A DNA stretch of 53,340 bases from Thraustochytrium aureum (Eukaryota), in the NCBI GenBank assembly GCA_012862495.1, contig BLSG01000348.1:8404-61743 (forward strand), given 5' to 3'. Positions 12,801 through 53,340 of this stretch are shown in pieces. The notes under the pieces are model-generated. The model saw nothing but the letters and a program-made list of their open reading frames with translations, made no database searches and had not been told where the DNA came from. The number at the start of each line of letters is the position of its first letter. The first letter of the stretch is position 1. The position numbers and the translations under genes are program-made.

Positions 12801-13050
12801 CTCAAGGCCGCAGGCCTTGGCCAAAGGATCGCAGTCGCCGGGGCTCGATGCGCCGCGCTCGCCCCTGAAACCGCGTTCTGGGGCTCCGCTGGTGCCTCAG
12901 CAAACTATGGCAGGCAGGGTCTCGGCGACCGTGGCCTCGCCAGGTCGCCCCGAGCAAGCAAAACCAACTCGTGTTGCGCCGGATTGCGCTGGGCCGGCCT
13001 GCCCTGCGCCGGTTTCGACGACACGAGCGTTTGAGGACGTGTTTTTCTGA
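9871..13050 (+). CDS. HFM1: Meiotic DExH helicase MER3/HFM1 (Ski2-like helicase plus Sec63 domain); 2 introns
   Basis: APTGAGKT, IYVCPTKAL, TTPEK, DEVH, SAT, FGPEFRPCPL, FMFDRDLN, GKPSLVFCTSRK, TTTLAQGVNLPA, QMIGRAGR. Introns begin gtaagt at ~10049 and gtgagt at ~10222. An extra base lies near 10157. The 3' end is 12868 or, with a frameshift, 13050. Confidence 0.88.
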
Positions 13051-18824: not shown

Positions 18825-19814
18825 TCAATGCTGCTTTTGCTCAAGCTCCTCGGCGCCACCGGCGCTTCGCGCGTTTACGACCTCAGCGCCAGCAGCGCCC
18901 ACACCGGCAGGCTTTGAATGCAAGACGCGCACGCCAAGGTACAGCTTCTTTGCGCTCTCGAGGCGGAACGCTTTGCGCGCGGGGTCGATTGGCTTTTGGT
19001 ATATCTCCAACAGCTTGGGCCCCGCCTTGGTCACCTCATCCATCTCGAGCAGCGCCCAGCACTTGGTACTGTTCTTGCGTTTCTTGGGCTTGTAGTGCAC
19101 AAACTCCAGAAAGATCGCCGCGTCTGCTCGGGCGAGCTCCTCCAGCGGCGTTTGGACATGCACGATCGTGTTTAGGTCGACTCGATACCGCACCTGCTTT
19201 TCCGCGAAGGGCGTTTCCTGTTTGGGCTCCAAGCTCGCCCCGTTGCCGTCCAAAACGGAAACGCGGACAAATGCGTTGATAAACTCTTCGGCGTTCTTGA
19301 TCCCGATGCTCCCGACGTCGATGGAGACGAGGACCTGGCCTGGCTCGCCCTGCGGCCGTGGGATGAGCAGACCGCCAGGCTTGGTGCGCTGGTCCAGCTT
19401 GAGCTCGCTCGGGTCCGCCCAAAACCTCGTCGAAAAGCAGGGCAGGGCGCTGGCGTTGACGGGAAAGGGCTTGCGCTCGCGCCCTGGGCTGGCGAATAAG
19501 TCGTCCACGGCGCGGACAACCAGCTTCATGTCCTCCGACGAAACAAGGCCGTCCGCGTCGGTCGCAGTCAGCGCTCCGCTCCTCGTCTTCAATACACAAA
19601 CAAGCGAGTGCAGCAGATCGTTGTCCTCGGCGCCGAGGCCGAGCTGCGGTGCCGCTTCGACCATCGTCGTGGCCAGCTGCTCGTACCCGTCCACAGCCTC
19701 AATCACCTGGCCCCAGAGGTCTGACTTGACATACTCGGCCAGCTGCTTTAGCCATAGCTCGCGTAGCTTGACGCGCTCGCCGTCGCTGCCCTTGGCCCCC
19801 ACGTCGTCCGCCAT
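18825..19814 (-). CDS. AIDA: Axin interactor, dorsalization-associated protein (AIDA; N-terminal helical plus C2 domain)
   Basis: DLWGQVIEAVDGY (Aida_N); AIFLEFVHYKPKKRKNSTKCWALLEMDE and LEIYQKPID (Aida C2). Confidence 0.9.
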   Translation of the reverse strand: MADDVGAKGSDGERVKLRELWLKQLAEYVKSDLWGQVIEAVDGYEQLATTMVEAAPQLGLGAEDNDLLHSLVCVLKTRSGALTATDADGLVSSEDMKLVVRAVDDLFASPGRERKPFPVNASALPCFSTRFWADPSELKLDQRTKPGGLLIPRPQGEPGQVLVSIDVGSIGIKNAEEFINAFVRVSVLDGNGASLEPKQETPFAEKQVRYRVDLNTIVHVQTPLEELARADAAIFLEFVHYKPKKRKNSTKCWALLEMDEVTKAGPKLLEIYQKPIDPARKAFRLESAKKLYLGVRVLHSKPAGVGAAGAEVVNARSAGGAEELEQKQH

Positions 19815-20825
19815 CGCCGGCAGCCCGAGCGCGGCAGCGTTTTCAGGGCGGCCTGCTGCCTTTGCACTGCGGTATCCAACCTGCGGCTTTCGCACTGCTC
19901 CCAGGGCGCTCGCCGAAAGGGCGCGCGCAGCTCCAAAGCAGAATGCGCAACGATCGTCAGCGACCGCTCGAGGCCTGCAGCCCGCTCGGCGGCCTTTGTC
20001 GCATGCGTCAATCGCCCAATCGGCCGCGTCCGAGCAGCGCATTTGACCGTTTCACTGGGACAGTGGCCGGACGCCCTCCGTCCGGCCATGGTGCCCGAGC
20101 CTCGAACGAACGAGTGCGGCCGACGCAAGCTGAGCTTGAGAGGCGGGCCTCCTTGCCCTGTGGAGCGAGCGCTTCACTGNNNNNNNNNNNNNNNNNNNNN
20201 NNNNNNNNNNNNNNNNNNNNNNNNNNNNNNNNNNNNNNNNNNNNNNNNNNNNNNNNNNNNNNNNNNNNNNNNNNNNNNNNNNNNNNNNNNNNNNNCTCCT
20301 TGCCAGTGGAGCGAGCGCTTCACTGCGCTACGATGGACTGGAGGAGACGAGCCGGCCGGTCGGCTGATGCGTGCGACGAGTGCGGACAAAGCATTTTTTA
20401 ATACTGCAGCGGGCCTGCCCTGCTCGGGAGCTTGATTGGTCCCGCAAGGTTGGAGCTTCGCAGCGTGCGGGCTTGCAGCTGCTGCCGGGGCGATTGTAAG
20501 GACACCAGGAGTACCTCAGTGGCCTCAACCTTTTCTTGGGCCAGCCCGGCGCTTTCTTTGGTCGGATTCTTGTTCTTGTCGTCAAATCAAAAATGCGCCC
20601 AACGCTGGGCAAGTAGGTAGCCCACGGGTCGGTGCCCCGAATGCAGGGCGACAAGCTCTGCCGGCAGGTTTGCGCCTGCTCGATGCTTCATCCTGCCGGA
20701 CGAGCGGCCGGGCGTCGCCAATTGTAGCTCTGTTGAAAATTATAGAAATTGTTTTTGGCTCGCTCGCGCGCGCCTCATTCGCCGCGGCCCGCTCTCTCTA
20801 CTAGAGAGACTCTGTGGAGTACCGC

Positions 20826-23255: not shown

Positions 23256-24547
23256 ATGGACGAGACGAAGAGCAAGCTCGCCGCGCTCAAGGATGAGCTG
23301 CAGGCGCTCAAGGAGCAGGGGCAGAACGGCTGCTTTGAGACGCAGCCGATGCCCGCGCTGAGCAATGGCAACATGAAGGCGCGTCGGCAACTCCGCGGCC
23401 ATTTCGGCAAGGTGTATGCAATGCAGTGGGCCGGCGCCAGCGCCGCCGAAGAGGTTGTCTCCGCCTCGCAGGACGGCAAGCTCATCGTGTGGAACGCCAA
23501 CACGACGCTCAAGAAGCAGGCTATCCCTCTCCGCTCGTCGTGGGTGATGACGTGCGCTTTTGAGGAGAACGGAAGTAAGTTTGTTTATTCTTGCCGCGCG
23601 CGGCTTGCAGGCGGGGGCGCGGCTTGCAGGCGGGGCTTGCAGAAGCCAGAGGGTCCGCGCTAACAGATCTGGTCCCTCCTGCGGCACTCCTTCGCGCCAA
23701 CAGACCAAATGGTCGCGTGCGGTGGTCTTGACAACCTGTGCTCAATCTACAAGGTCGACCCCGAGGCAGTGGCGGGGCGCGCGCACAAGGAGTTGCAGGC
23801 CCACGACGGGTACCTCTCGTGCTGCCGGTTCATCGGCGACAAGAACATCATCACCTCTTCGGGCGACTCTACCTGCATCTACTGGGACGTGGAGAGGGCA
23901 GAGGCGCTCACGACCTTCAACAACCACAACGGCGACGTTATGAGCGTGGCCGTGCACCCAACCGACTCCAACCTCTTCATTAGCGGCAGCGTCGACGCGA
24001 CCTGCAAGCTCTTCGACATCCGCAACGGCAAGTGCGCCATGACCTTCGCCGGCCACGAGTCCGACATTAATGCTGTCTCGTTCTTCCCGAACGGCCTCTG
24101 CTTTGGCTCTGGCTCCGACGACTCGTCGTGCCGCCTCTTCGACTTGCGCTCGTACCAGGAGCTCAACAGCTTCATGTCGGACCGCATTCTCTGCGGAATC
24201 ACCTCCGTGGCCTTTTCCAAGTCGGGCCGCCTTCTCTTTGCCGGGTACGACGACTACTCGTGCCACGCCTGGGACGTCACCAAGCCCAGCGCTGGCAGCC
24301 CGCTCTTCTCGCAGGAGAAGGGCCAGGGCCACGAGAACCGCGTCAGCTGCCTCGGTGTCAGGTACGTTTATGCTTTGCTTTTGGAGTGTCTGCGCCTTGT
24401 CGCGCTTGCTCGACCTCGTTTGCCCTCGCTGCTCGCTTGATCGCGTGCCGATACTGACCGACGCTCCACTGCCTCAAACACTATAGCGCCACTGGGGACG
24501 CCCTCTGCACGGGCAGCTGGGACACCCTCCTCAAGGTCTACGCCTAG
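23256..24547 (+). CDS. GNB: Heterotrimeric G-protein beta subunit; introns 23575-23703 and 24362-24486
   Basis: [79 protein letters not shown]. Splicing both introns keeps the frame. Confidence 0.98.
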
Positions 24548-25664
24548 CTCTGAGGTGCGGTTGGCGGATGGCCGTCATTGGATCGTGCGCCAAACGCGTT
24601 CTGAGCTCTGCTTATCTGCAGCGCTGCGGCGACAAAACCCGAGCTCGGCCGAACCAAGCGATACATGTGATCATTCGACCCTCAACACAAAACATAGTTC
24701 TTTCATCTCCGTCTCCGCCCATTGCACTTTGTTGGCTTGCTCAGCGCGCTGCACTCTCTGGACAAGCTCTTGCTACTTTGGTACCACTTGGGATCGCGTT
24801 GTTGCTTCGCTTCATGGAGGGCTTGACGGGGGGAATTACCTCTGCTACAGATCCGAGCCGCCGCAGAGCTCCCAACTGCTACACCAGGGGCTCCGCTTTG
24901 ACCGAGGACCAAGCTCGCAGAGTACCGCGGGGAGAAAGACGCAGGAGCCGCTTTGTTCTCGAAACCACACGCCGCGAGGAACGGGCGCGCGCCCGGCACA
25001 CGCTCTAGGTCGGCAACCAAAGCCTTCAGCACAAGCAGCCACCGAGGCGTCAGCCAGACCTGCCAAGCCAAAAGCCAACCGCAAAACACGCAGCTAAGCG
25101 ACCATAGTGTTTGAGACGACAGGTGGACAGGCACTGGGAAGTAAGACCCGTACGGCCTGCCCGTTTATTGCCTCTATCTGCTCTTCGCCGCCAGTGCAGG
25201 CTTGCCCAAGCGTGAAAGCCAGCCCATGGTTAAGAAAAAGGGCCGGCGCGCCTGGACTGCCAAAGGCACACGCGGCGAACCCCGTCGCTATCCGCCCCGC
25301 CTGGCAAGCAAATGCATCACCTACCATTTCATGGCGGAATCCTGGGCGGGAGAGCAGGTCCAAGTCCACCGCCCGCCGCCACGCGTCGGCGGCTCATGCC
25401 CGCGCCATCCGCAGCTGTCCGCGCATGCAACGATGCGGCACTGCCGTGTTGGAGGTTTCGGGCTCGCGAGAGCCACACAAAAAACCTCGTGGACTCGAAC
25501 AGCGCGAGCTTCGTTAGCGCACGTTTTTCTTCCCCATCAGCTGCCGGAGCAGCCGCAGACCCAGCCAGACAGACCGCGTGCTGGCGAACGGCGGCCCGCC
25601 GGGGCAAACCTCGCGCGACCGTCTGCAGGCGGGCCCGGAGGGCGCGCGGCGCGCTTCGAGCGGG

Positions 25665-33758: not shown

Positions 33759-35275
33759 NNNNNNNNNNNNNNNNNNNNNNNNNNNNNNNNNNNNNNNNNN
33801 NNNNNNNNNNNNNNNNNNNNNNNNNNNNNNNNNNNNNNNNNNNNNNNNNNNNNNNNNNNNNNNNNNNNNNNNNNNNNNNNNNNNNNNNNNNNNNNNNNNN
33901 NNNNNNNNNNNNNNNNNNNNNNNNNNNNNNNNNNNNNNNNNNNNNNNNNNNNNNNNNNNNNNNNNNNNNNNNNNNNNNNNNNNNNNNNNNNNNNNNNNNN
34001 NNNNNNNNNNNNNNNNNNNNNNNNNNNNNNNNNNNNNNNNNNNNNNNNNNNNNNNNNNNNNNNNNNNNNNNNNNNNNNNNNNNNNNNNNNNNNNNNNNNN
34101 NNNNNNNNNNNNNNNNNNNNNNNNNNNNNNNNNNNNNNNNNNNNNNNNNNNNNNNNNNNNNNNNNNNNNNNNNNNNNNNNNNNNNNNNNNNNNNNNNNNN
34201 NNNNNNNNNNNNNNNNNNNNNNNNNNNNNNNNNNNNNNNNNNNNNNNNNNNNNNNNNNNNNNNNNNNNNNNNNNNNNNNNNNNNNNNNNNNNNNNNNNNN
34301 NNNNNNNNNNNNNNNNNNNNNNNNNNNNNNNNNNNNNNNNNNNNNNNNNNNNNNNNNNNNNNNNNNNNNNNNNNNNNNNNNNNNNNNNNNNNNNNNNNNN
34401 NNNNNNNNNNNNNNNNNNNNNNNNNNNNNNNNNNNNNNNCAGCAGCAAGGCCAGCAGAACGGCCAGCAAGAGCCACGAATGCGCGCCGCGCAGTGCCGCA
34501 ACGCCCAAGAGCCACGACCAACGCGGCTCTGCTCGGCTGCAAACGGCGCTCCCGCAGTGCCTCCCAGAGCGTTATTCGACTGCAAGCCCCCTCTGTCGTC
34601 GCGCTCCCCGCGTCATTTTTCCCTCTCCGCCTCGTCACAGGGGACTCTACTGTCACGCGCTCGCTTGACTGCGCTTCCACGCTGCAGAGCGTCTTACGAG
34701 GGCGATTGTGCAAGGAACAAGGAACGAGGCGGCAGCGAGGAAGTCGCTCGTTGTTCGTTGGAAGAGGGCTCGCGTCACGGGGGGGGCGATGTGCGTCACT
34801 AGAGCGGGTTGGACGGTGTCTGGGGGGGCGGTGCACACTGCCACTGTGGCGGGGCAGGCTGCGATTGTCCGCCGCGCGCCGTGCTGCAGAGTGCCCGTTT
34901 GGCGCAGGGAACGCAGCGCCTGCGAGGCCGACATTGCGCGCAGAGGTCTGCGGCACTCCTGCCGCGTTTTGGGACGGCGCGCTAGGTGTGCTCCATCACG
35001 GCCCAGGAGCCTGAACAGGCACATCCAGCAGTCAGTCGAAGGCGGTACGTACGTTGTGCGGGTCGGGCGGAGCTGCAGACCAGTGTCGAACTGTGGCGTG
35101 CAGACCAGCGCCGAACTGCGGCTTGCAGAACAGCGCCGAGTTGCGACGGGCTGCGACGCTGGCCAAGAACCCGGCCAGGAGGTCAGACACCTGCTGCCTG
35201 GCTGCCTGGCTGCCTGGCTGCCTGGCGGGTGCGACTTGGTAGCGGCGGCGCGGCGACGCGCGGGCGGCGGCCACG

Positions 35276-38073
35276 ATGGCGGGCGGCCAGCTGTGCGATA
35301 CACTCGAGAATGGCACGGTGACGAACTGCATCGAGGTTCCCGTGCCATACATCTCAATGTACTTTCTTTTTATCGGAATGACGCTGGGAGCCCTGACACT
35401 CTGGGCACAGGTGAAGCTGGCGCCCTGGTTCCCCTACACGGCTATCATGTTCGTGGAAGGCATCGCTTTGGGCAGCGTGCACTTTGCCACCGACCAAGGC
35501 TTGGGCGACCTCAGCAAGTCGATGCAGTCCTGGATCGAGATCGACCCGTTCCTCCTGATGGCCGTCTTTCTGCCCGCGCTGATCTTTGCGGACGCCATGC
35601 GCGTCAACATCCACCAGTTTCAGACCAACGCGTTCTGGCCGTCCGCGCTGCTGGCAGGGCCCGGCGTGGTCGCGAACACGCTCATCATGAGCGCGGTTGC
35701 AAAGTACTTTTTGGGCTACGATTGGGACTGGTACGCGTGCCTAATGTTTGGCGCCGTGCTGGGCGCCACCGACCCGGTCTCGGTGGTCGCGCTGCTCGAG
35801 TCCTCGGGGGTCCCCGCGCGGCTGACGCTGCTCATGTCCTCGGAGAGCCACATGGCCGACCTGACGGTCCTCGTCCTGTTCAAGTTCTTCCTCGACCTCA
35901 TCACCGAGGGCGGCGTGCTCCTCGAGACCCCGACGACGACGGTCAAGTTTTTCGCGAGGATGCTCCTGATCGGGCCCGTCGTCGGCCTGGTCTTTGGCTA
36001 CGCGGCCTACTACCTTATCAAGCTCAGCGTCTCGCCCACGCGCAGCACGGACACCATGGTGCAAATCACGGTGACCGTCGTGTGCGCCTACCTGAGTTTC
36101 CTCGTGTCCGAGCACAACTTTCATAGCAACGGCATCCTCGCTTCTGTCGTGAGCGCCTGGATTATCGCCGCCTACGCCTGGCCAAAGTTCGCCAAGAGGG
36201 AGACCATGGAGCACGTCTGGTCAGCGATAGAGTACTTTGGCAACACCATGATCTACCTGCTTGCCGGCATCATCCTGGGGTCAAGCTTGTACTCGTCCGT
36301 GCAGTCCGAGCTGACGGCCAACGACTGGGTCAACGTCTTCATGGTTTGGGGCTTCCTCTTCGCAAGCCGCGCCGCCATCATCGGCGTCGGCTACCCGGCC
36401 CTCTGGATCGCGAGCAAGAGAAAGTTCACCCCTGGCGAGGCCGTCTCGCTCGTCTTCGGGGGCATCCGAGGCGCTGTCACAATCACGCTCGCCATCGTTG
36501 TCCTCAACACGAGCGAGAGCGGCAAGTACGATGCGGAGCTCGCGCTGCACTTTGGGCCCGAGTTCCGCTCGGCGCTCGGCAAGTTTTTCTTCCTCGTCGG
36601 CTCGGTCACGCTCCTGACGCTGCTCGTCAACTACACCTTGTTCCCCTTCCTGGCGAAGCTGCTCAAGGTCACAACCAACTCGAAGAGCAAGGAGCAGCTG
36701 CACGACCACGTGCGCAAGCGCGTTCGCCAGAACGCCGTCAAGGTCTTCCACGAGATCCGCGAGCGCGACGACGGCTACGACCACATCGACATCTCCGAGA
36801 TCCAGGAGCTCGTGTCCACGGCGCGCGCGAACCGCCGCTCCCTGACTTGCCCCTGCCGGGGCCGAGCCCGCGGACTCGACGCTGGTCGACCCGGACAAGG
36901 TCCAGCTCNNNNNNNNNNNNNNNNNNNNNNNNNNNNNNNNNNNNNNNNNNNNNNNNNNNNNNNNNNNNNNNNNNNNNNNNNNNNNNNNNNNNNNNNNNNN
37001 NNNNNNNNNNNNNNNNNNNNNNNNNNNNNNNNNNNNNNNNNNNNNNNNNNNNNNNNNNNNNNNNNNNNNNNNNNNNNNNNNNNNNNNNNNNNNNNNNNNN
37101 NNNNNNNNNNNNNNNNNNNNNNNNNNNNNNNNNNNNNNNNNNNNNNNNNNNNNNNNNNNNNNNNNNNNNNNNNNNNNNNNNNNNNNNNNNNNNNNNNNNN
37201 NNNNNNNNNNNNNNNNNNNNNNNNNNNNNNNNNNNNNNNNNNNNNNNNNNNNNNNNNNNNNNNNNNNNNNNNNNNNNNNNNNNNNNNNNNNNNNNNNNNN
37301 NNNNNNNNNNNNNNNNNNNNNNNNNNNNNNNNNNNNNNNNNNNNNNNNNNNNNNNNNNNNNCGAGGGCAAGCTGCCGCGCAAGAGCCGGGCCGCGCTGCA
37401 ACTTTTGAACTCTGTCGACATTGCCTTCGACGACGTCGCGCACAAGCTCGACGATCTGGCACCGCTGCGCCTCAACGAGATGCTAGAGTACGTCAGCTGC
37501 CCCGAGCGTGCGTTTTCGTGCGTAGACCGGGTGCTACCAGAGTGCGTCACTATCGACAACTACCTTTTTTTCCGCATCAAGAACGCGCGGCGGGAGGAGG
37601 CCGTCTACCTGGCCACTTGCTTTGTGGAGGCGCACTTGCAGGCCGAGAAGCGCATCGCAGAGTTCGTTGGCGAGGACGAGACCATCGACACGCCCGAGGA
37701 GGCGTATGTAATCAAGGAGAGCCGCGCTCTGCGGCAGGAGGTCGCCACCTTTCTCCGGCTCGCGAGCGAGGACGACGAGGAGGTCGTCAAGCAGGTCCAC
37801 GTCATCAAGATGACCAGCTCCATCATCGAGAAGCAGCGCCTCTTTATCGAGCGCCTCGCCGAGCAAGGCCTCATCGACGAAAAGTTCCTCGAGGAGCAAA
37901 TGGAGTCGGTGCGCTCCGACCAGACGCGGCTCGAGCGTCGTCGCGTCAAGCGCTTCCGCAAGCTCGCTGCAAACCGCGTCTCGACCAAGCTTCCGCGAGG
38001 ATTCGGTGCCTCGAGCAGCGCCAGGCCTGGCGAGAATGACGCCCAGGTAGCCCCCTCGGAATCGGAGCCCTGA
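35276..38073 (+). CDS. CPA1 Na+/H+ antiporter, SOS1/SLC9C-like; gap inside
   Basis: FLPALIFADA, LLAGPGV, FGAVLGATDPVSVVALL, GGIRGAVTITLA, about 12 TM helices and an SOS1-like helical cytosolic tail. No cNMP-binding domain is visible. Confidence 0.93.
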
Positions 38074-38177: not shown

Positions 38178-38258
38178 TCAACAACAACAACAACAACAAC
38201 AACACAACAACAACAACACAACAACAACACAACAACACAACAACAACAACAACAACAA
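38178..38258. repeat. Imperfect (CAA)n microsatellite
   Basis: About 80 nt of caa units with ca slips. Confidence 0.95.
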
Positions 38259-38530: not shown

Positions 38531-41500
38531 CTACCTATCAGCACTCTTTTCCTCTGCGGACGAGATTTCACCCCCAAGGTCGCGACGTTCAGGCTCCACG
38601 CGCTGGTCACCCCCTTGCGAGCCAGTGAGCGTCGCACTGGCGTTCCTCAGCAGCTCCCGGACTCGCGTCTCCACGTGCCCAGCGTGGAAGGTGTGGTTGC
38701 TCTGCACGGTCCACGCGGCGAGGCCCACCGACGCCGCCGAGCCGCTCTGGGCGTACTCGCACAGCTGCACACATTGTCGCAGCGTGCCTGCGTCAACGGT
38801 GCCGTGGCCCAGGAGCAACTCGACAAGCGCGACGTTTTGCGTTTGCACAGCCACCGGGAGCATGATGCGCATGTTGTGGGCCACCTTGCAGNNNNNNNNN
38901 NNNNNNNNNNNNNNNNNNNNNNNNNNNNNNNNNNNNNNNNNNNNNNNNNNNNNNNNNNNNNNNNNNNNNNNNNNNNNNNNNNNNNNNNNNNNNNNNNNNN
39001 NNNNNNNNNNNNNNNNNNNNNNNNNNNNNNNNNNNNNNNNNNNNNNNNNNNNNNNNNNNNNNNNNNNNNNNNNNNNNNNNNNNNNNNNNNNNNNNNNNNN
39101 NNNNNNNNNNNNNNATGAGGGCGAGGGCGGCGTCGTTCCCGCAGCTCGCAAAGTTGCGCAAAGCCGTGTCAATCTGCTCCACGCCCGGCGCAAAGTGCTC
39201 GAGAACCATTCCGAGCACGACCACGGCTTTGGACTGGCACCTGCTCAAAGAGAGATTCACGAGCGCCAGCTCGCACGTCGCTGGCATCGCTGCAGGCGCG
39301 CAGCCTCGCATCCGCGCGTCATAGTCTAGGAGAACGCGCGTCGCGTTGACAAACGGTCTCTTCACGGCGAGACCGAGAGCCGACTCGCCGCGGCGTGACC
39401 GGGTCGCGTGCGCCGCGTCGTCGCGGTCCAAGAGCACCTCGAGCACCTTGGAGCGCCCGTGTAGGGCTGCGACCAGAAGCGGAGTGAGGCCCAGCTCGGT
39501 GTCCGGGACGTCCAAGCGGGCGCCTGCAGCAACCAGGGCCCTGAGGGACCGCACGCCGTTTTGCTTTGCTGCGAGCCAGGCCGGCGATAGCGGCTCGCCG
39601 TTCACCGTGAATGGTTCATTCGGGTCGCCCCCCGCAGCGAGGAGGTACTCGGTGACGCGAAACTTGTTGAAGCGGACCGCACTTGCGAGAAGACTCAACG
39701 TCTCGCGACGTCCAGCCCCGAAGGTGAGCGACACGCGATGCGTCAGCAGAATATCTGGGCTTGCGCGCACCGTGCTGTAGTGCTCGCGCAGGGCCTCGAG
39801 CACCTCAATGGACCCGCTTTTCACCGCGACATACAGGGCCGTGGCGCCCGATTTGCTTTTCGCGAGGACGTCGGCGCCCATGCCTAGCAGGCTCCTGACC
39901 ACGCTCGCGTGCCCGTTCGAGCACGCGGCCATCAGCGGGGTGAAGCCCTTGCTCTTGCTGGCATTGATGTCAGCGCCGTGGCCAACCAAGAGCTCGACGA
40001 CGGCAAGATTGCCGGAGCGGCAGCTCTCGTACAAAGCAGACCGTCGCTCGCTTGACGTGGCAAAGTTTACTGCGGCGCCGCGGGAGAGCAGCAGCTCGAC
40101 GCGCTCGGGGTGCCCATAGCAGGCCGACGCGTTCATCAACGCCGTCCAGCCCGTGTGGGGCGACACTGTGTCGGCGTGGACGCCCATGTCTAGCATCATC
40201 CGAAGTGCTCGCGAGAACGACCCCTCTGGAGAGCCGGCCAGCGTGCAAAAAAGGTGCTCTCGCAACGTCGGGGGCAGCACGTGCACCACCAACGCGCGAC
40301 CCATCGCCGAAGGCAGCTTTTCGATGAGAAATGCGAGCATCGCGTGCTCCACGGTGATGAGGGACAGCTGCCGCGACTCGGGGTCGCCGAAGCGCCGCAG
40401 AAGCAGCGCAAGCTCTGCCATTTCCTTGCGATTGGTCGAGTTCTTGAGAGAACGGGCCAGGTCATCGGCGCGGCTAGCGGCCGCCGCGCCGGCTCTGACC
40501 GCCGCCCCAAACGCGGCGGCATCTGACTGCGCAACCATGCGCCCGCCGGCGCTCGGGCCGGTTGCACATTGGAGCGCGTCGAGTGCCGCTGTCGCGGCGA
40601 CGCAGAGCTGGTCCATCTTGGACCGGACGGCGTCTGAAACGAGCTTGCTCGCCAAGCGGCGCAAAAGCGTCCTCGCTCGCTTGATCCGCTCGAGGCCCAC
40701 GACGTCTTCGACGCCCTCAAGCAGGGCCATGTATGTTTCGGTGAGCTCCTCGACGGACCCAGCGCGGCGCTCCACCACATACTCGGCGCACAGGTACGCC
40801 TCGACCGTCGGCTGGCAAAACTCAAACTTGCGCTCGCGCAAGCAGCTCGAGCGGTTGACGCACCGCAACAGCGGGCTCTCGTCGCGCTTGACACTGGTGA
40901 AAAGCAAGTTGAAAGTGCGCGCCAGCCACGCCGTCGCGAGCACGCAGCTCTCGTCCCTCACGACGTCGCAGGCCGCGCCATTCGCGCGAAGGGCAAACTC
41001 GCTCGGCGAGAAAAACCAGAGCTCCTCAACGACGGCGCGCAAGACGGTTTCGGCTCCAAAATACGCTGCCTCGTAGGATCGCGAGCAGCGGCGCTCCAGA
41101 GCCACGCGGGCGAGAACGCGCCGCAGCGAGGCGGAGAGCGCAGGATTGGACGACAACCGAAGCGGCGCCATGGTAAACTTGATCCAGTCCTCCAACAGGG
41201 CTGTGCGGCTGACCACCTGATCGCCGTCAAAGCACGGCAATGCGGTCGACTCGCTCAACTTGCTCTCTGCCTGAAGCGACCTGGGGCTGGCGCCGGCCGC
41301 AAGGGCAAGGCCAGAAGGGTGGGTGCCGCTCGTCCACCGACTCTAAAAGGATGCCACCAAGACAGACAAGAGAAGCGGGCTCCGCGCAAACTGCTGGTGT
41401 TTCGGCGAGATGCACAGCTGTTCAAGAGCCTCGTGCTCGGCGCTCTCCTTGACGCGCGCGCTGACGATTCGGGCCACCTGGTTTCGATCGAGGTCGTGAA

Positions 41501-44346
41501 GCGTGCACACCACTGTTCGTCTCCGCTCCACGAGCTCGGAAATGNNNNNNNNNNNNNNNNNNNNNNNNNNNNNNNNNNNNNNNNNNNNNNNNNNNNNNNN
41601 NNNNNNNNNNNNNNNNNNNNNNNNNNNNNNNNNNNNNNNNNNNNNNNNNNNNNNNNNNNNNNNNNNNNNNNNNNNNNNNNNNNNNNNNNNNNNNNNNNNN
41701 NNNNNNNNNNNNNNNNNNNNNNNNNNNNNNNNNNNNNNNNNNNNNNNNNNNNNNNNNNNNNNNNNNNNNNNNNNNNNNNNNNNNNNNNNNNNNNNNNNNN
41801 NNNNNNNNNNNNNNNNNNNNNNNNNNNNNNNNNNNNNNNNNNNNNNNNNNNNNNNNNNNNNNNNNNNNNNNNNNNNNNNNNNNNNNNNNNAGCAAAGCAC
41901 CGTTTTGCCGCTGCCCCCAGGACCAATGACAGCGAGGCGAGCGGGCACCTCGCCACCGGGGGCGCGAAGGACTGCATCGATGTCGCACGCCGCTGCGGCG
42001 TCCTCCGAGTCGTCTTCCTCGGGCAGCAAGAGCTCGCCTGTCAAGGGAAACTCGAGGTCGACCGAGAGCCGCTGGCAGGTCACTGCGTCAGTGTAGACGC
42101 CGTGCTGCATTCGAAGCAGCGCCAAGTACTTGCGCTGCACAGCCCCGATGCGCTGCCCGTTTGCCGAGAAGTGGCCGCGACGCAGCGGGGGGCGCCGCAC
42201 AGTCGGGATTGGGCTCAGCACGTCGCCATCCGCTTGCTTTAGCTCGCGTAGGATCGCCTTGCAATGCTGGAGAGCGCAAGCGAGGGCCCAGAGTTTGCCG
42301 AACTCGTTCACGTCGCGAAAGCGGAGCGCGTCCAGGGCGTAGGCAAGAAGCGCGTAGTTGTACTGGCAAGAGGGGCCAATGAGGGTGCCAGAGTCGTCTC
42401 TGGCGTACGCGTCCGCGAACTGGCGCAGCCGGGACACGGTGCTCAGCGCTTGCGAAAAGCGACCTGCGTTGCACGCCGACGAGGCCGCGCCAAACGCGAG
42501 GGCGGCGGTTTGCTGCGGCCGCGCAGCCTGCCTGCACAGCGCTTCAGTTGCTTGCAAGGCCGTGACCAAGTCAGCGGTGCAAGTCAAGGCCGTGTACTCA
42601 AATAGCACGCACGTCTCGAGCTTGGCCAGGTCCCGCAGCACGTGCGACCGGCCCCACATGGCAAAGTCGATTATCCATGACACGCCCATGCTGTCGACGA
42701 GCAGGTTCATTCCGTTCAAGTCGCCATGTTGGTCGGCCATGAACACCGGATGCGGCGCCGAGGCTTTTCCTGCGGCTTGGGCAAACGCTTCGAGAAACCG
42801 AACCACGGAGGCACGCGACTCAACAAGCGCGTCGATTCCCGGCACGACGCCCTGCAAGAGCTCTATCCTGAGGCTGTCGAGCTCTGGGACGGCGCGTCGG
42901 GCTGCGCGAGCGAGGTCGTACTCCTCATAGAGGCGGGTGGGCTCGATTTGGCGCGTTTTCTCATAGGCGCCGCCAAGGATCTCCCCAAACACTGTTCCAA
43001 GGAGGTCTTCAATATCGACCAAAGCCGCGCTGTCGTCGGCCAGCGATCTGCTCGTGCCGTCGCGCTGCGCCTGCGCGCGATACAGCTCCTTGAATGTCCG
43101 GATCACCGACGTGCCTGATTTGATAAACTGCGGAAGCGTCCAGCAGGCTCCGCAGAGCTGGATCTTCATCCCGGCGCGGTCGCCGCTCCGCACAAATCCA
43201 AGAACGCTCGGCGCGTTCTCTCCGAGCAGAGGTTCTGCGGCCTCCATGCGCTCGGCCTCGGCGCGTAGGCTGCTGGCCTTGTCAACCTTGACCACGGTTT
43301 GCTCTTGCTGGTCGCCGTCCTTTGCCCAGCTGTCGCATCGTAGCACAACCGCTCCCGAGAACCCGCCCTGCAGAAGGTGCGCCTCGACCTGTGAAACGCC
43401 GGGAAATAGCCGCGAAACGATTCCTCGCACAGTTGCGAGCTCGCGCTGCTCTGCATCGGCGATATCCTCCTTGGATTCCAGGTGCATGCCGGACTGGTGG
43501 ACGGAGCGTACGAGCGCTTGCACGGCGTCTTCGCCAAGGCGCACCCTTGCCCGGCGCGAGTTGGCTCTTGGTCTCTCGTTCGTTGTGAGCCTGCTGCTCT
43601 GGCCCTGTTTGCTCTCGGGGTCGCGCCAGCTGTCTCCGCCGTCGCCTGGCGCGCCGTCATCGTCCTCTAGTGAGAGCCCGCTTGTGCCCCGCCGGACGAG
43701 GACGCGGCTTTCGTCAACCCAGGCAAAGACGGACGCGGTCGATCGGGACAGGACCACAACAGGCTCTTGCACGGCGCCGAGGTGCGGGCCGTGTCTGGGC
43801 GAGAGCAGGATGTCGTCCGCGCCGAGGCCGTCGCCCCGGCCGGAATGCAGAGTCGAAGAGGCGCTGCATCACTAGCTGCACATCCGTTTCGTCGAGCATC
43901 TCGGTGCCACAGAGCCACTGGTCGTTCTGGACTCCCACGACGGGAACAAGCGCCCGCTTGCGACCAGATGGCGCTGCCCGAGCCGCATGTGGACTTGCGC
44001 TTCGCGACGCTGCACGCTCGCGGTCCGCGGCAGCCTTGCGTCTAAGATGCGATTGTGCAAACGCGGCAAAGTCTTCGGCCTTTTCGCGGAAGGCCGCCTG
44101 CACGAGCTCGAGAAGGACGTCAAACGTGCACTGCTTGACGAGCTCTTCTGAGCATTCGTGCTGCGGCGCGCCAGTGGGTTTGCATCCTCGCTCAAACCAC
44201 TCGCGCACGAAGGCCTCGCCTGGCTGGCCTGCGCGGAGGTGCGACCGCGCATCTTTCACGAGCGCGCTCACAACGTCCTCGACCCCATGCCGTCGCATGA
44301 ACGCCCTCAACGACGCCGCATGGGCTCGCCGCGTCGCATCTTCCAT
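38531..44346 (-). CDS. NLR-like STAND protein: APH/TCAD9-like kinase, NACHT NTPase, ankyrin repeats; frameshift ~43848, in-frame TAG at 41343-41345, two gaps
   Basis: GGFSG..V, VVKVD, HGDLNGMNLLVD, WIIDFA, RDLAKLE; Walker A VIGPGGSGKT; ARSPLLLSVL; FEFCQPTVEAYLCAEY; roughly 7-8 ankyrin repeats (GWTALMNA, GFTPLMAAC, GATALYVA, GLTPLLVAA). Confidence 0.85.
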
Positions 44347-44879: not shown

Positions 44880-45155
44880 ATGTTGTTCTTTACTGTTCAT
44901 TTCTGTTCTGGTCTCCACTGTTCTTCATTGTTCTTTAGCTAGAATTCCGTTATTCGCGGACGTTTCCGTTTTGATGAAATGATGAAAAGTGCAGCATAAC
45001 GGATATTTCCATTTACAGTGGTTATTTGTTTCTTTTCTTTTGAATTTGGATACTCTCGTGTAGAACGGTTATTTCCCTACGTAATGTTTATTTCCGTTGA
45101 TGGCAAGTATTTCCGTTATAAATGTTTTTTATAATTGCAATCTGTGAACGGTCAT
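44880..45155. promoter_or_regulatory. AT-rich island with 7 AACGG/CCGTT motifs between divergent genes
   Basis: Motifs start at 44947, 44966, 44998, 45064, 45094, 45113 and 45147; GC is clearly lower than in the flanks. Confidence 0.5.
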
Positions 45156-45252
45156 CATCGCGACAGAATCGGCCGTCGTTGGTGCCGCTCGCTCGGGGCA
45201 GAGCACGGCGCAGGGGCTGGCAGGAGCTGGCAGGAGCTGGCTTGAGCGAGCC

Positions 45253-46746
45253 ATGAGCGATGCCAGCGGGTACGTGGCGCTGAGCGACGCTCGCGCGGAG
45301 GCCAGCGAGCTGGACGCCATGCGGCGCGTGGACGACGACTCCGACGCCGGCGAAGCGCCTCACCACGTCCTCCCGCTCGGCCCAGCGTACGGCCTTGAAG
45401 CCGAGTTTTGGATGCACGCGGGCTTGGCTGCCGCGTTCGGTCTGCTGATGGGCGCCGTCGGGTACATGTACCTGGAGGCGGTCGAGCGCGTGCAAGAGGC
45501 GTGGTGGGGCGACGAGTACGGGGAGACCCGCGAAACCGCAGGGATCGGCAAGGGCAGAGCGCTCTGGGTGCCGGTCATGGCCGGCGGCGGTCTGCTGGTC
45601 GGCCTTACCAAGCTGGCCGTCCGGTTTCCGCACACTGTGCATGGCCTGTTCCACGAGGTGCGGGAGCAGGAGACGAGCTCCGCGGACTCGCCCAAGGTTT
45701 TGCTCGTGTCCATCTTGAGCCTCATGGCAGGGACAAGCCTTGGTCCCGAGGCGGCAATGGGCTCGCTTGGCGGTGGGCTGGCGCAGTTCTGGTCCGAGAA
45801 GCGCGGCTTGAGCAAGCGCATCTCGGGCCGGCACGTGATCAACGGAGTTGCAGCAGCGATTGGGCCGCTGTTCCCTTCCCCAGCCATCGTCGTTCTCTAC
45901 CTCAGCGAGATCGGGCGCGCGGAAAACATGCATTACATGTACATGCGCTCGGTAATCATGATGACTGCGGGAGCCTCGAGCAGCTTTGCGGTGTTCTTCG
46001 CGCTCAAGGGCGCGGCGTACCTTCCGTTCGATCCGCTCAAGCTCACGTACTCGTTCGAAACCGGGGACCAGGCCAAGGCGATCCTGCTCGGCGTCTTTGG
46101 CGGTTGCGTAGGCGTCCTGCACATCGTCATCGCGGGACTTACCAAAAAGGCGTTTGCGCGCCTCCAAGCCCGCTTGCCAGAGCGCGTGGCGACAGTCGTC
46201 CTGCCGGTTATCGGCGGCGTGCTGGCCGCCCTCTTGGCTCTCTGGGCGCCTCTCACGCTGGGATCCGGCAGTTTACAGACGAAGCAAGTGCTCGTACTCG
46301 TGGCCAAGGGTCACTTGGGCCCCTCGGCCATGTTCCAGACCGCTCTGGCCAAGTCGCTCGCCTTTAGTGTGGCCAAGGCGTCGGGCTTCATTGGCGGCTC
46401 CATATTCCCGATGATCTTTATCGGGTCCGCCGTCGGGTGCGGGGTCTGGGGGCTCTTGAACGACGGTGAATCACTCGAGATCCACAAGGACGTGCACGCG
46501 GCCGGCCAGCTCGTGCTGTACAGCGCGTGCATGATGGCCGCCGTCCCCGCGAGCGCGATGCCGGCTCCGTTCACCTTGGTTTTCATGGTGGCCTTCACGT
46601 TCCAGCTGGGCGCCTACCAGGCGACGCCGATCTTCGTCAGCTGCACGGTCGCCCACCTCGTCACCGCTGGGAGTGGCCTTGTGTTGCGTCTGTTGAACCT
46701 CGTCCACCGTGGCCAGCCGCACGCACGCGCCTCGGCCTCCATCTGA
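45253..46746 (+). CDS. CLC-family anion channel/transporter, prokaryote-like (EriC/YfeO-type), no CBS domains
   Basis: Intact intronless 497-aa multi-TM ORF; AGTSLGPEA, PLTLGSG, LAKSLAFSV, SGFIGGSIFPMIFIG. Confidence 0.9.
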   Translation: MSDASGYVALSDARAEASELDAMRRVDDDSDAGEAPHHVLPLGPAYGLEAEFWMHAGLAAAFGLLMGAVGYMYLEAVERVQEAWWGDEYGETRETAGIGKGRALWVPVMAGGGLLVGLTKLAVRFPHTVHGLFHEVREQETSSADSPKVLLVSILSLMAGTSLGPEAAMGSLGGGLAQFWSEKRGLSKRISGRHVINGVAAAIGPLFPSPAIVVLYLSEIGRAENMHYMYMRSVIMMTAGASSSFAVFFALKGAAYLPFDPLKLTYSFETGDQAKAILLGVFGGCVGVLHIVIAGLTKKAFARLQARLPERVATVVLPVIGGVLAALLALWAPLTLGSGSLQTKQVLVLVAKGHLGPSAMFQTALAKSLAFSVAKASGFIGGSIFPMIFIGSAVGCGVWGLLNDGESLEIHKDVHAAGQLVLYSACMMAAVPASAMPAPFTLVFMVAFTFQLGAYQATPIFVSCTVAHLVTAGSGLVLRLLNLVHRGQPHARASASI

Positions 46747-47771: not shown

Positions 47772-50700
47772 GACGTCAAGATCAAGGACCAAGGAAAGGA
47801 CTGGATCGAGGTCTCGGACAACGGCAGAGGCGTCGACAAGGCCAACCACGACAAGATCGCGCGCAAGTACTTTACGTCCAAGATCAGGTCCTTTGAGGAC
47901 ATCGACTGCGTCAAGACCCTCGGGTTTCGCGGCGAGGCGCTTTCGGCCCTGCTCGACCTGTGCCCGGCAGGCGGCGTCGAAGTGTTTACGCGCACGGAGG
48001 CGGACGCCGCCGGGACCAAGCTGACTTTCAAGCGCGACGGTGCTGTCGCGACTGCGACGCCTTGCGCGCGGCCGGTCGGAACCACCGTGACGCTGCGCGG
48101 TCTGTTCCGCCCGCTGCCGGTGCGGCGGCGCGAGTTTGAGCGCACGATCAAGACGCAGTATGCCAAGCTCCTCTTGGTTTTGCAGGGGTACGGCGTGACG
48201 AGCTGCGGCGTGCGCATCTCGTGCACGCAACTGGAAAACTCTGGGCAAGCGCAAGGTGGTTTTGCAGACCCCCGGCTCGGACTCGATGCAGGCCAATATC
48301 ATGAGTGTCTGCGGCGTGTCTGTGTCCGGCAACCTCATCCCCGTCGCCTTCGAGTTCATGGACGAGGCCCAGCTGCGCGCCTCTGCAGGCGCAGCCAAGC
48401 CCCACTCGTTCGAGCCCGGGCGGGAGAGCAGCGCCGACGAGTCCGGCGACGAGGGCACGGGCAACGACGATGCACGAGAGGGTGGAGCGGGGGCGGCGGC
48501 AGGGGCGAGCAAGGAGCGCGTCAAGCTGACTGGGTTTGTCTCCAAGTTCGGCGAGGGGATCGGCATGACCAGCGCAGACAGGCAGTTCTGGTTTGTGAAC
48601 GGACGACCCGTTGACTACAACAAAGGTTCCAAAGTGCTCAACAAAGTGTGGAGGCAGCGCGAGATGAAGCACAAGCCGGCTCTCTTCCTCAACTGGACTG
48701 TGCCCGCTGGCGGCTTCGACATCAACCTCGCCCCGGACAAGCGCGAGGTTTTTCTCACGAACGAGGCGACGTTGCTCGCCCAGCTCCAGACCGCCTTCGA
48801 GGGCCTCTGGCAGCGCGAGCCCGAGCAGGCCAAGTCGCAGACCATGAGAGACTTGTGGGCCACAGCAGGAGCAAGCGGAGGGAGCGGCGCTGCACTGTGC
48901 GCAAAAGGAGAGGGCGAGGAGAGGGAGGGCGAGGCCGAGCCCTCCTCGAGCGTCGGCGCAGGCGGCGATCTGGGCGATCTGGGCGGAAGCGATGATTTAA
49001 GATGCGAGGTCGCCACAGGGCAGAACCAAGACGGCGTCGAGGGCGACGGGGTTGCCTCCGCCTCTGAGNNNNNNNNNNNNNNNNNNNNNNNNNNNNNNNN
49101 NNNNNNNNNNNNNNNNNNNNNNNNNNNNNNNNNNNNNNNNNNNNNNNNNNNNNNNNNNNNNNNNNNNNNNNNNNNNNNNNNNNNNNNNNNNNNNNNNNNN
49201 NNNNNNNNNNNNNNNNNNNNNNNNNNNNNNNNNNNNNNNNNNNNNNNNNNNNNNNNNNNNNNNNNNNNNNNNNNNNNNNNNNNNNNNNNNNNNNNNNNNN
49301 NNNNNNNNNNNNNNNNNNNNNNNNNNNNNNNNNNNNNNNNNNNNNNNNNNNNNNNNNNNNNNNNNNNNNNNNNNNNNNNNNNNNNNNNNNNNNNNNNNNN
49401 NNNNNNNNNNNNNNNNNNNNNNNNNNNNNNNNNNNNNNNNNNNNNNNNNNNNNNNNNNNNNNNNNNNNNNNNNNNNNNNNNNNNNNNNNNNNNNNNNNNN
49501 NNNNNNNNNNNNNNNNNNNNNNNNNNNNNNCCGCGGATCAAGTCCGCCGCGGCAAGCGCGGCCATTCCAGGTCGCTCCTCGACGCAGACGGCGTGGACGA
49601 GGCGGACGCGCTTAGCGAGACTGATGGCGCGACGCGAGGAAGGTCGCACTCGCGCTTGGACCAGTTTCGCTCTCTTTTCCAGCGGCGAGTCAGAGAGCGA
49701 GGAGCCGCGCTCGCAAGGCGTGTCAAAGCGCAAGCCGCGCGGCGGCGGCTCGAGCTTTGCCGACCGCATCGAAGACGCCGCTCTGGAAAAGGGTACCCGC
49801 CGTGCCGTTGGCGACGACAGCGACGAGGCCGACGAGGCCGCCGAGATGGAGCAACTCGATGGCGTCGAAGACGACAGCGACGACGGCCAAGACGATGGAG
49901 GGGCCGGCGACAGCGAGGCAGGAAGCCCTGGCGCAGATGCTGTGCGCCGCGGCAAGCGACCTGCCGCCGCTGTGCGGAGGGCGGAACGGCGCCTTTCAGC
50001 AGACAGTGACGAAGAGCCCGTCGAAAAGCGCAAGCGGAAAGCGCATCGGCGCATCGAGCGGGCAGACGACCGCGAAAATCGCGGTGTGACTGAAGTTGCG
50101 CTCGACGCGAGCCCAGCGCCGAGGTCGCCGGCCGATCCCGGGCCGAAGAAGCGCGCTCGCGTAGCTCGCAAAGTGCCAACTTCAACGTCTGGGGACGGCC
50201 GGTACCTGGTCATGCGCGGCACGAGGCTGGAGGAGATTGCTGCTGGGCTGGATGCTGCAGCAAGCGCCGCAGGCGGGAGCGCCGGCGAGGACCTCGCGGC
50301 TGGGCGCGGCGATGCAGAAAGCGAGCAAGCGAGCGGAGGCACCTGCCTGAAGGGCGTCGACGGCAAGATCTCCGAGCGCGTCTTCGCCAAGGCAGACTTT
50401 GGCCGCACGCAGGTTCTGGGCCAGTTCAACAAGGGTTTCGTGATCGGGCGCGCTGGCAACGACATGTACATTTTCGACCAGCACGCCTGCGACGAAAAAT
50501 ACCGCTTTGAAACGCTCCAGAAGACGACCAAGATCCGCCAGCAGCCGGTGATTCGACCGCTGCCGCTCGACCTCAGCGCCACTGACGCGCAAACGATCCG
50601 GGACAACTTGGATATTTTTGAACACAACGGGTTCAAGATTGAAGAGGTGACATTTGGCGCCCCCGGCGAGCTGCCCGCTGGCCCCGACGAGGGCGACCCT

Positions 50701-51117
50701 GGGTCGTCGCAGGGCGCGGAGGGCTCCGCTTCGCGTGGGCCCTCCGTCAAGCTGTGCATTAAAGCGCTGCCGAACAGCTACAAGACGCAGTTCGGCGCGG
50801 AGGACGTGCGCGAGTTGGCCTCGCTGCTTCGCGAAAGCCCGCCGCCGCCTGTAGACCTGCGCGAACGCCTCGGCTACGTTCCGCCGCGCCTGCCAAGAAC
50901 GCGGGCGATGTTTGCTTCCCGCGCCTGTCGCAGCGCGATCATGATTGGGGACGTGCTGGACACGCCAAAGATGCTCAAGGTGCTTCGCAACATGGTCGGG
51001 CTCGAGCAGCCCTGGAACTGCCCGCACGGTCGGCCCACCATGCGACACTTGCTGGACCTCGGCGCTGTCTATCAGAAGCGCGGCCAGCAGGCGCACGAGT
51101 ACATGACGTTTCAATGA
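47772..51117 (+). CDS. PMS2: MutL homolog PMS2 (yeast PMS1) mismatch-repair endonuclease; 5' end in gap, frameshift ~48245
   Basis: IEVSDNGRG, TSKI, TLGFRGEAL, GTTV, LPVRRREF, DINLAPDKREV, GQFNKGF, DQHACDEKYRFE, ASRACRSAIMIG, PWNCPHGRPT. Confidence 0.97.
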
Positions 51118-51185: not shown

Positions 51186-53340
51186 TCACGCCTCCGCCCC
51201 GTCCTCGTCGCCCGCGCTGTCGCCTTGCCCGAAAGGGTCGTCCTCATCAACGTCAAAGTCCAACATGTCGACACCCGCTGGACCTACGGCGGCCTCCTCC
51301 CGAGCCGCGACTTGCAGTTCGTCGACACCGCCTGGCAACGGAGGCTCACTTGCGCTTTGTTCAGGCTCTGGATGCACAGACTCGTCTGGCACACTGCTGG
51401 TGGCGATACCGCTGCTGGCCACCGCTTCGGCGGAGGCGCTTTGGGCCGAATCCGGCGACGCCGCGGCGAGGGTTTCGGGGCCCGAACGCAGCGCGAGCAG
51501 GCGTCGCTGGAGCTCCGCCACCGGCAAGAAAGTCCGAAGGTCAGAGGAGAAGAGGCGCCGCCCGAAAAGGGTGNNNNNNNNNNNNNNNNNNNNNNNNNNN
51601 NNNNNNNNNNNNNNNNNNNNNNNNNNNNNNNNNNNNNNNNNNNNNNNNNNNNNNNNNNNNNNNNNNNNNNNNNNNNNNNNNNNNNNNNNNNNNNNNNNNN
51701 NNNNNNNNNNNNNNNNNNNNNNNNNNNNNNNNNNNNNNNNNNNNNNNNNNNNNNNNNNNNNNNNNNNNNNNNNNNNNNNNNNNNNNNNNNNNNNNNNNNN
51801 NNNNNNNNNNNNNNNNNNNNNNNNNNNNNNNNNNNNNNNNNNNNNNNNNNNNNNNNNNNNNNNNNNNNNNNNNNNNNNNNNNNNNNNNNNNNNNNNNNNN
51901 NNNNNNNNNNNNNNNNNNNNNNNNNNNNNNNNNNNNNNNNNNNNNNNNNNNNNNNNNNNNNNNNNNNNNNNNNNNNNNNNNNNNNNNNNNNNNNNNNNNN
52001 NNNNNNNNNNNNNNNNNNNNNNNNNNNNNNNNNNNNNNNNNNNNNNNNNNNNNNNNNNNNNNNNNNNNNNNNNNNNNNNNNNNNNNNNNNNNNNNNNNNN
52101 NNNNNNNNNNNNNNNNNNNNNNNNNNNNGGTCAGAGGAGAAGAGGCGCCGCCCGAAAAGGGTGTCGTAGCAGTGCTGCACGAACGGGAGGAGGACGGTCG
52201 CCAAAAGGTTGCAGAGCTTGTCGAAGCGCTCACGAGTGGGCGGCGCCGCCTCCGCGTTTCGTGGCGCCGAGGCCCCTGCCGCCGCATCGCTTTTCCAGGC
52301 CGCCGCAGCGCCAACCTTGAAGGAATCGAGGCAGCGGGAATGGCCGCGAGCCGCGCTATGAGAACTTTGCCAAGGTCGAGCGCAAAAACCGGCGACGCGC
52401 ACTGCCGAAGCTCGTTGAACGAGCCGAGCAGCACGTTGACGAGCTCGGCCGCCACGGGAAACTCGAGGATGGCGGTTGGGGGAGACAGCGAGGCCTCGGC
52501 TGCGTCTGTCCCGTTGGCGAGGGCGCCGTCCGCCTCCTCCGCACTGTGGCCCGCTGAGGAGCCTTGGCCAGGGCCCTCAATCGCAATCGCCGCGCCCGCC
52601 GACGCGCTCTGGCGCGGTATGGGAAGCGGCGCACCCCAATCGCCGCTCGCGATCTGCGGCGCGGCGCGCTGACCCCCTGTTGCCAGAATTCGTCCATGAC
52701 AGCAAACACGCGTGTTCTGAAAGGCTCCATGAGCAGCGGGCGAAAGTCGGCTCCCACGCGCGCAAGGCTGAGCCCAAACTTCATGGCCTGCTCGAGCACG
52801 TTCGAAAGGGCCCCAAAGTCGTCAATCAGGGCCACCGCTTTGTTGAGCGTGAGGAGGAAATCGATCATCTTGCCCGACACCCAGCGGGCCAGAATCCCCC
52901 CGTCCTCGTCCAGCTCTTGCAGCACGTTGTCCCCCGTTGCAAAAATGGCCTTGTACTGGGTGATGACATCGAACCAGTTGACGCGACAGCGCTCGATGAG
53001 CTTGAGCGAGCTCTGGTACGGCCGAGCGGCAAACGCGGCCGGGTCCTCGGTGACGAGCGAGTTGATGAACGAGTCGCGGCAGTCCAGAAACTCGAAGCGC
53101 AAGTGCACTTCGGCGCCGCGCGCCTCCGTGGATGCCGAGGCGGCCGCATGAGCACCAGACGCCAAGTCGCGCTGGCCCGAAGGCACATCCGACGCGAGGC
53201 TCTTGCGCACGCGCTCTTGCGCGTCCAGCCGCCGCAGGTAGGAAATGTACCGCAAGCACTCTGGCAGGCTGATCTTCTGGCGCAGCTGCTGCAGCAGCTG
53301 GTGCCTCATGTGCGATGACAGCTCGTACACCTCCTCGGCT
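51186..53340 (-). CDS. COG8: Conserved oligomeric Golgi complex subunit 8 (Dor1); 5' end outside the window, frameshifts ~52670 and ~52390
   Basis: LLQQLRQKISLPECLRYISYLRRL, RVNWFDVITQYKAIF, GLSLARVGADFRPLL, LLGSFNELRQC. Confidence 0.92.

Follow-up and report, generated by a model that had tools for sequence, protein, structure and literature searches.

Chains that join an N-terminal enzyme to a NACHT nucleotide-binding module and a C-terminal array of repeats are already known from fungi and bacteria, kinases being among the enzymes, and related protist proteins are already present in databases. In the accessible part of Dyrka et al. (2014, PMC4986451), fungal NOD-like receptors (NLRs) are described that combine an N-terminal PKinase domain (PF00069) with ankyrin, WD40 or TPR repeats, ankyrins being the commonest annotated sensor. 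The bacterial NACHT antiphage proteins, as far as the available text of Kibby et al. (10.1101/2022.07.19.500537) describes them, carry N-terminal enzyme effectors, have protein kinases and ankyrins among their domains, and are defined by the motif D[GAS]hDE. The kinase family TCAD9 is named, in the accessible portion of PMC10910872, as associated with the vWA-MoxR-VMAP ternary systems. Active effectors resembling aminoglycoside phosphotransferase (APH) are rare and might act on small molecules according to the available sections of Kaur et al. (2020, PMC7159879); in those of 10.64898/2026.09.18.752743 TCAD9 is mentioned only as an excluded profile, and those of PMC9503650 contain nothing on APH-like kinases. 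We describe here a gene of Thraustochytrium aureum, located on the minus strand at positions 38531..44346 of a 53,340-nucleotide stretch of contig BLSG01000348.1 (hereafter the window), whose predicted product consists of a helical head, a TCAD9 kinase, a NACHT-lineage module, ankyrin repeats and a helical tail. It belongs to a protist family, TCAD9-NACHT, that is undescribed but visible in databases.

Within the limits of those sources, the layout is that of the fungal NLRs, a kinase included; the fungal enzyme is an ordinary protein kinase, whereas the one encoded here is an APH-like TCAD9. With the bacterial NACHT proteins, again as far as the source describes them, the hub and the N-terminal enzyme are shared, but defence has been shown for the bacterial proteins while the present one is known from sequence, and its two orthologues do not possess D[GAS]hDE. 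A full-text search, from which subscription papers were largely missing, found no published description of TCAD9-NACHT proteins in protists, as the original prediction had expected in calling the architecture uncharacterised; some could nevertheless appear in the supplementary material to Kaur et al. (2020) or to Kibby et al.

The gene begins at an ATG at 44346 and stops at 38531-38533, giving about 1,870 codons after stitching, with no evident intron. It is colinear end to end with two orthologues, P0001 (1822 amino acids) and P0002 (1924 amino acids; Hondaea fermentalgiana), each a single chain in which the domains follow in the same order. Among named relatives, the one nearest to the window protein is from Hondaea fermentalgiana, with 35% identity over the kinase region. 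The original prediction of one long gene of roughly 1,900 codons agrees with this stitched length; for the window as written, however, it does not hold, the open reading frame (ORF) being split into five pieces by a frameshift, an in-frame TAG and two runs of N. Just one gap had been named in that prediction, which also missed the frameshift, the TAG and the conserved N-terminal helical region. The frameshift is caused by an extra base at 43842 that is missing from a contig of read run X1 (depth 4.3), and its removal joins the ATG to the kinase frame. A gap of 223 N (38892-39114) also changes the frame; an X1 contig of depth 4.4 spans it with 21 letters, and since the difference of 202 leaves 1 on division by 3, the C-terminal tail returns to frame. 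Either repair depends on a single contig of about fourfold depth, and X1 could itself derive from the sample that gave the window. The second gap, of 346 N (41545..41890), hides most of the NACHT core, Walker B included. By eye, loose ends of X1 continue in frame into it from both flanks; a metagenome scan to fill it gave 25 pattern matches, none of which was confirmed. The assembly of the window is gappy throughout, with 19 runs of N. A single kinase-NACHT-ankyrin chain, the layout originally proposed, is found in both orthologues and is likely here. Judged from the substitutions among related strains, the gene is shown to be under purifying selection: of the 19 distinct coding differences that runs X1 and X2 show, 13 are synonymous, and so are 8 of the 11 located downstream of the TAG, the expected synonymous fraction being 26-34% (P 0.0025 and 0.011, respectively, under the stricter, transition-only null; non-coding differences above 44346 are left out of the count). 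Run X4, presumed to be an RNA run, covers three short stretches.

The kinase domain (42255..43442, minus strand) matches TCAD9 (PF19974) in Pfam with E 4.7e-28 and 98.9 bits (cut-off 40), and APH with E 3.4e-6. Its glycine loop, Lys, helix-C Glu, HGDLNxxN and DFA are intact, and the motifs first noticed, GGFSG (43353-43367), VVK, HGDLN (42714-42728), IDFA and RDLAKLE, are all in place on the minus strand. A structure model of the domain, built from an alignment of 72 rows, reached pLDDT 88.9 and pTM 0.90. Its best VIA-align matches are tied between a putative APH (Z 18.0, root-mean-square deviation 3.5, 270 residues aligned) and methylthioribose kinases (Z 17.8 and 17.4), and Foldseek added maltokinase, APH(3') and choline kinases. 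Profile score, catalytic residues and APH-like model thus agree with the intact TCAD9/APH-type kinase originally proposed. With methylthioribose kinase, APH, choline kinase and maltokinase the domain shares the fold at 9-20% identity, and a search of PDB sequences with it gave no match. The fold leaves the substrate unfixed, since kinases that act on peptides and proteins share it and stand lower in the list; with about equal likelihood the substrate is a small hydroxylated metabolite of the ribose or ADP-ribose type, or a protein. Searching 1.84 billion representatives with a profile returned 1074 proteins at E<=0.001, of which the best 150 were examined. Among these, the catalytic Lys, Asp and Asn are retained in 42 of the 44 rows flagged as bearing NACHT (the window model, two cluster duplicates and the weak P0144 being counted in) and in 93 of 93 others. 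Two family members, P0022 and P0144, have a dead kinase in which the catalytic Asp and Lys are replaced.

The kinase is joined by a conserved linker (about 41960-42150, minus strand) to the Walker A motif GPGGSGKT (41901..41924), with its Lys. Beyond the 346-N gap, the end of the NACHT core and helical domain 1 (HD1), with the sequence RSPLLL (41346..41543; PLLL at 41367-41378), match a family NACHT profile at E 1.7e-4 (Z=1000). There follow a winged-helix region and a further helical domain (40200..41222), 31% identical to both orthologues; within it FEFCQPTVEAY (40794-40826), a motif also conserved in the orthologues, is what we take to be the winged-helix motif. The pieces present in the window have no Pfam NACHT match because the core falls in the gap. 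A profile made from nine Pfam-NACHT-positive relatives, with the subfamily of the window protein excluded, gives E 7e-10 for P0001 and P0002. Walker A, the Mg-binding Asp and the sensor-1 Arg are all retained by these two orthologues; the window copy keeps Walker A and the HD1 proline, and has Arg at the sensor-1 position (X1 loose end, by eye). The P-loop had been assigned to the STAND class (signal transduction ATPases with numerous domains), and the family profile together with the congruent trees described below supports a NACHT lineage. By profile and phylogeny the module is NACHT by descent, while strict membership by D[GAS]hDE fails for the orthologues. In the ESM Atlas one lead, scoring under 0.9, was obtained, with a cluster carrying nSTAND_NTPase5 (52%) and TCAD9 (32%).

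NACHT is present in 44 of the 150 kinase matches examined, nine of them by construction. When 21 long matches were chosen for Pfam, NACHT was identified in 15, ankyrins in 13 and both in nine; the other tails of the family are HEAT, RCC1, WWE, LRR and DUF6829. Named NACHT-bearing entries among 30 proteins looked up include three further Hondaea paralogues (GBG27114.1, GBG29183.1 and GBG26260.1) and the dinoflagellate proteins CAK9092772.1 of Durusdinium trenchii and CAK0894799.1 of Prorocentrum cordatum (a Prorocentrum/Polarella entry). Rarity of the architecture is not supported: it is a single branch within a family of which Hondaea has at least four paralogues. The uncharacterised protist TCAD9-NACHT-repeat proteins share kinase, linker and NACHT lineage with the window protein, and the helical head is shared by P0001 and P0002. 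Other subfamilies differ in heads and tails, have mostly a canonical Walker B and bear only automatic database names. A large subfamily with the order TCAD9-NACHT-ankyrin-DUF6829 was also encountered (P0065, P0077, P0088, P0123, P0134, P0059, P0048, P0076 and P0119); one member is named from dinoflagellates, and in five the Walker B reads EGLED and not DGLDE.

Phylogenetic analysis of 134 kinase domains was performed with FastTree and midpoint rooting, two duplicates and P0144 having been dropped. The window kinase groups with P0001 and P0002 at support 1.0, and the NACHT-bearing kinases all lie on one side of the tree, with the exception of P0022. Eighty kinases that possess no NACHT form a clade (support 0.98) comprising 22 isochorismatase and/or DSP-phosphatase fusions, six STAS fusions, one ADP-ribosylglycohydrolase fusion and 51 unlabelled proteins; prokaryotic origin is shown for only two members, from a bacterial metagenome-assembled genome (MAG) and an archaeal cluster. 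The prokaryotic isochorismatase-TCAD9-DSP phosphatase and STAS-TCAD9 proteins have the same kinase family and invariant residues as the window protein, but no NACHT fusion is found in that clade of 80. For 40 proteins, the kinase and NACHT trees have 19 of 37 splits in common, including 16 of the 20 well-supported ones, against at most two in 500 shuffles. This congruence shows that kinase and NACHT were passed on together, whereas heads and tails changed places, and the exchange of tails is, by analogy, comparable to the sensor swapping typical of NLRs.

A likeness to the TCAD9 of bacterial ternary systems had also been proposed. The kinase family is indeed the same; the nearest NACHT-less relatives are not shown to be ternary-system parts, save one that lies by a MoxR-like AAA gene, and no MoxR, vWA or VMAP partner was found among the 22 other ORF stretches scanned in the window. 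A Nitrospinota MAG (L002:4001-7435) encodes a TCAD9 protein with 44% identity to P0003 over residues 1-611. Immediately after this gene come a MoxR-like AAA gene and a further ORF, a neighbourhood like that of a ternary system.

The N-terminal helical region (44038..44328, minus strand) contains two short helical-hairpin-like segments and matches P0001 by BLASTP at E 1.9e-7. A profile of it matches just the three members of the subfamily among the proteins compared, and a PDB sequence search with it gave no match. A tandem duplication of its two halves was considered and rejected, the hhalign probability being 0.3%. At the other end of the chain, the ankyrin repeats (39318..40184, minus strand; Ank_2 E 2.8e-37) bear out the C-terminal ankyrins first noticed and are followed by the C-terminal helical tail (38531..39317), which spans the 223-N gap (21 bases in X1).

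We consider it reasonably probable that the kinase-NACHT-ankyrin chain works as a ligand-triggered kinase switch of the STAND/NLR type; autoinhibition, ligand sensing and oligomerisation are here carried over from NACHT proteins. A ligand would bind the ankyrins and so release a closed, nucleotide-bound NACHT module, the opened module would bring the APH-like kinase domains together by oligomerisation, and the clustered kinases would then phosphorylate a target. Should the protein act in this way, a role in stress or pathogen surveillance would have slightly better than even chances and one in ordinary cell signalling slightly worse; an immune role, as first proposed, is a candidate function.

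Several observations weigh against such a switch. Neither P0001 nor P0002 has a Pfam NACHT match at E<=1, both lack the HD1 proline, and they occupy a long branch of the NACHT tree. In place of D[GAS]hDE they read DGISQ and DGLSQ, and they alone among the 44 family members have no acid after the Mg-binding Asp; the Walker B of the window copy falls inside the 346-N gap. Since both orthologues are without the two acids after Walker B, the switch of this subfamily is likely to be slow or non-hydrolysing, and with the Pfam match, the signature and the proline all missing on a long branch, it could be that the module serves purely as a scaffold. The ankyrins, in which diversification had been anticipated, are about as conserved as the kinase: identity to the two orthologues is 47% and 42% for the ankyrins against 43% and 44% for the kinase, and between the orthologues it is 52% and 66%, respectively, a weak test as three distant sequences were compared. 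The near-identical internal repeats of fungal NLRs, as the accessible text describes them, are absent from the ankyrins of the window protein. No paralogue occurs within the window, and the neighbours are housekeeping genes that form no gene cluster.

These features would fit a housekeeping signalling or metabolic kinase in which NACHT survives only as a decayed scaffold, the ankyrins hold a fixed cellular partner and the helical head anchors the protein, which we regard as unlikely though well ahead of a negligible chance. The degeneration of Walker B in both orthologues, their long branch in the NACHT tree, the conserved ankyrins and the housekeeping neighbours speak for it. So does the distribution of the four Hondaea paralogues: they belong to three or four distinct subclades that all have counterparts elsewhere, a pattern resembling old stable orthogroups and not a recent expansion. 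RIIa/Dpy-30-type docking occurs in flagellar proteins, and a resemblance of the head to RIIa (docking/dimerisation) was detected in P0001 only, at E 0.019. That value is below the cut-off, however, Pfam found no match, RIIa included, in the head piece of the window, and the two halves of the head give no significant alignment. A purely structural module would also have to account for the retained Walker A, Mg-binding Asp and sensor-1 Arg, for the HD1 proline in the window copy, and for the canonical Walker B of 33 of the 44 family members (31 by pattern and two more by alignment). The ligand-triggered switch is retained as the preferred reading.

The remaining point against that switch concerns the window copy itself, in which an in-frame TAG (41343..41345, minus strand) stands in the called sequence between NACHT and ankyrins, within a poorly conserved linker where the orthologues cannot be aligned; none of the four read runs reaches the site. 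Were the TAG real, the allele would be broken or split into a sensor-less kinase-NACHT protein and a winged-helix-ankyrin part that is separate or untranslated, an outcome that we consider improbable. An intron that removes the TAG is disfavoured: 12 in-frame GT-AG candidates were identified, with donors such as GTCTTG, GTGGCA and GTCTGT, none of them like the donors GTAAGT and GTACGT of the G-protein beta subunit gene of the window, which makes splicing through the site unlikely and to that extent favours a real break. On the other side stand the further defects of the assembly (the extra base at 43842, the wrongly sized gap and an apparent frameshift in the next gene near 36845), the single chains of both orthologues, and the sequence after the TAG, where the frame is kept, G+C at third codon positions (GC3) is 0.78-0.83 and the synonymous excess persists in related strains. 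Assembly error, a rare allele and a true break are the candidate causes, and the first two are more likely than an intron.

The family also offers a handle on TCAD9, for which the cited literature, in its accessible parts, gives no known substrate. Fusions related to NAD+ or ADP-ribose recur in the family, namely WWE, ADP-ribosylglycohydrolase, Tpt1/KptA, a weak NUDIX and the isochorismatase family (P0010, P0086, P0120, P0122, P0129 and P0003-P0005), and provide a lead on that substrate. Because of these fusion partners, and of a ribose kinase among the tied best structural matches, one may speculate, at rather long odds, that the proteins are an old protist class of NLR type that would phosphorylate an NAD+/ADP-ribose-type metabolite through a prokaryotic-type kinase, making or removing a second messenger, with the present subfamily as a one-way, non-hydrolysing version. 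Almost nothing is known of how stramenopiles and dinoflagellates sense pathogens inside the cell, and a fixed kinase-NACHT core with swappable sensors, present as four paralogues in a cultured thraustochytrid, is a concrete candidate.

Of the 22 further ORF stretches scanned in the window, some matched transporter, repair and trafficking genes and the others had no match. Domain scans placed a DEAD/Sec63 helicase gene at 10226-12865 (plus), an AIDA-family gene at 18828-20051 (minus), a CLC channel gene at 45148-46746 (plus), a MutL-family gene at 48199-51114 (plus) and a Dor1/COG8 gene at 52359-53339 (minus). The G-protein beta subunit gene (23257-24550, plus) contains two short introns, to which the donors given above belong. 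In a Na+/H+ exchanger gene (35243-38073, plus) the reading frame appears to shift near 36845, shortly ahead of an N gap, probably through another assembly error. Between the exchanger gene and the kinase-NACHT gene lies a CAA-type microsatellite (38180-38255).

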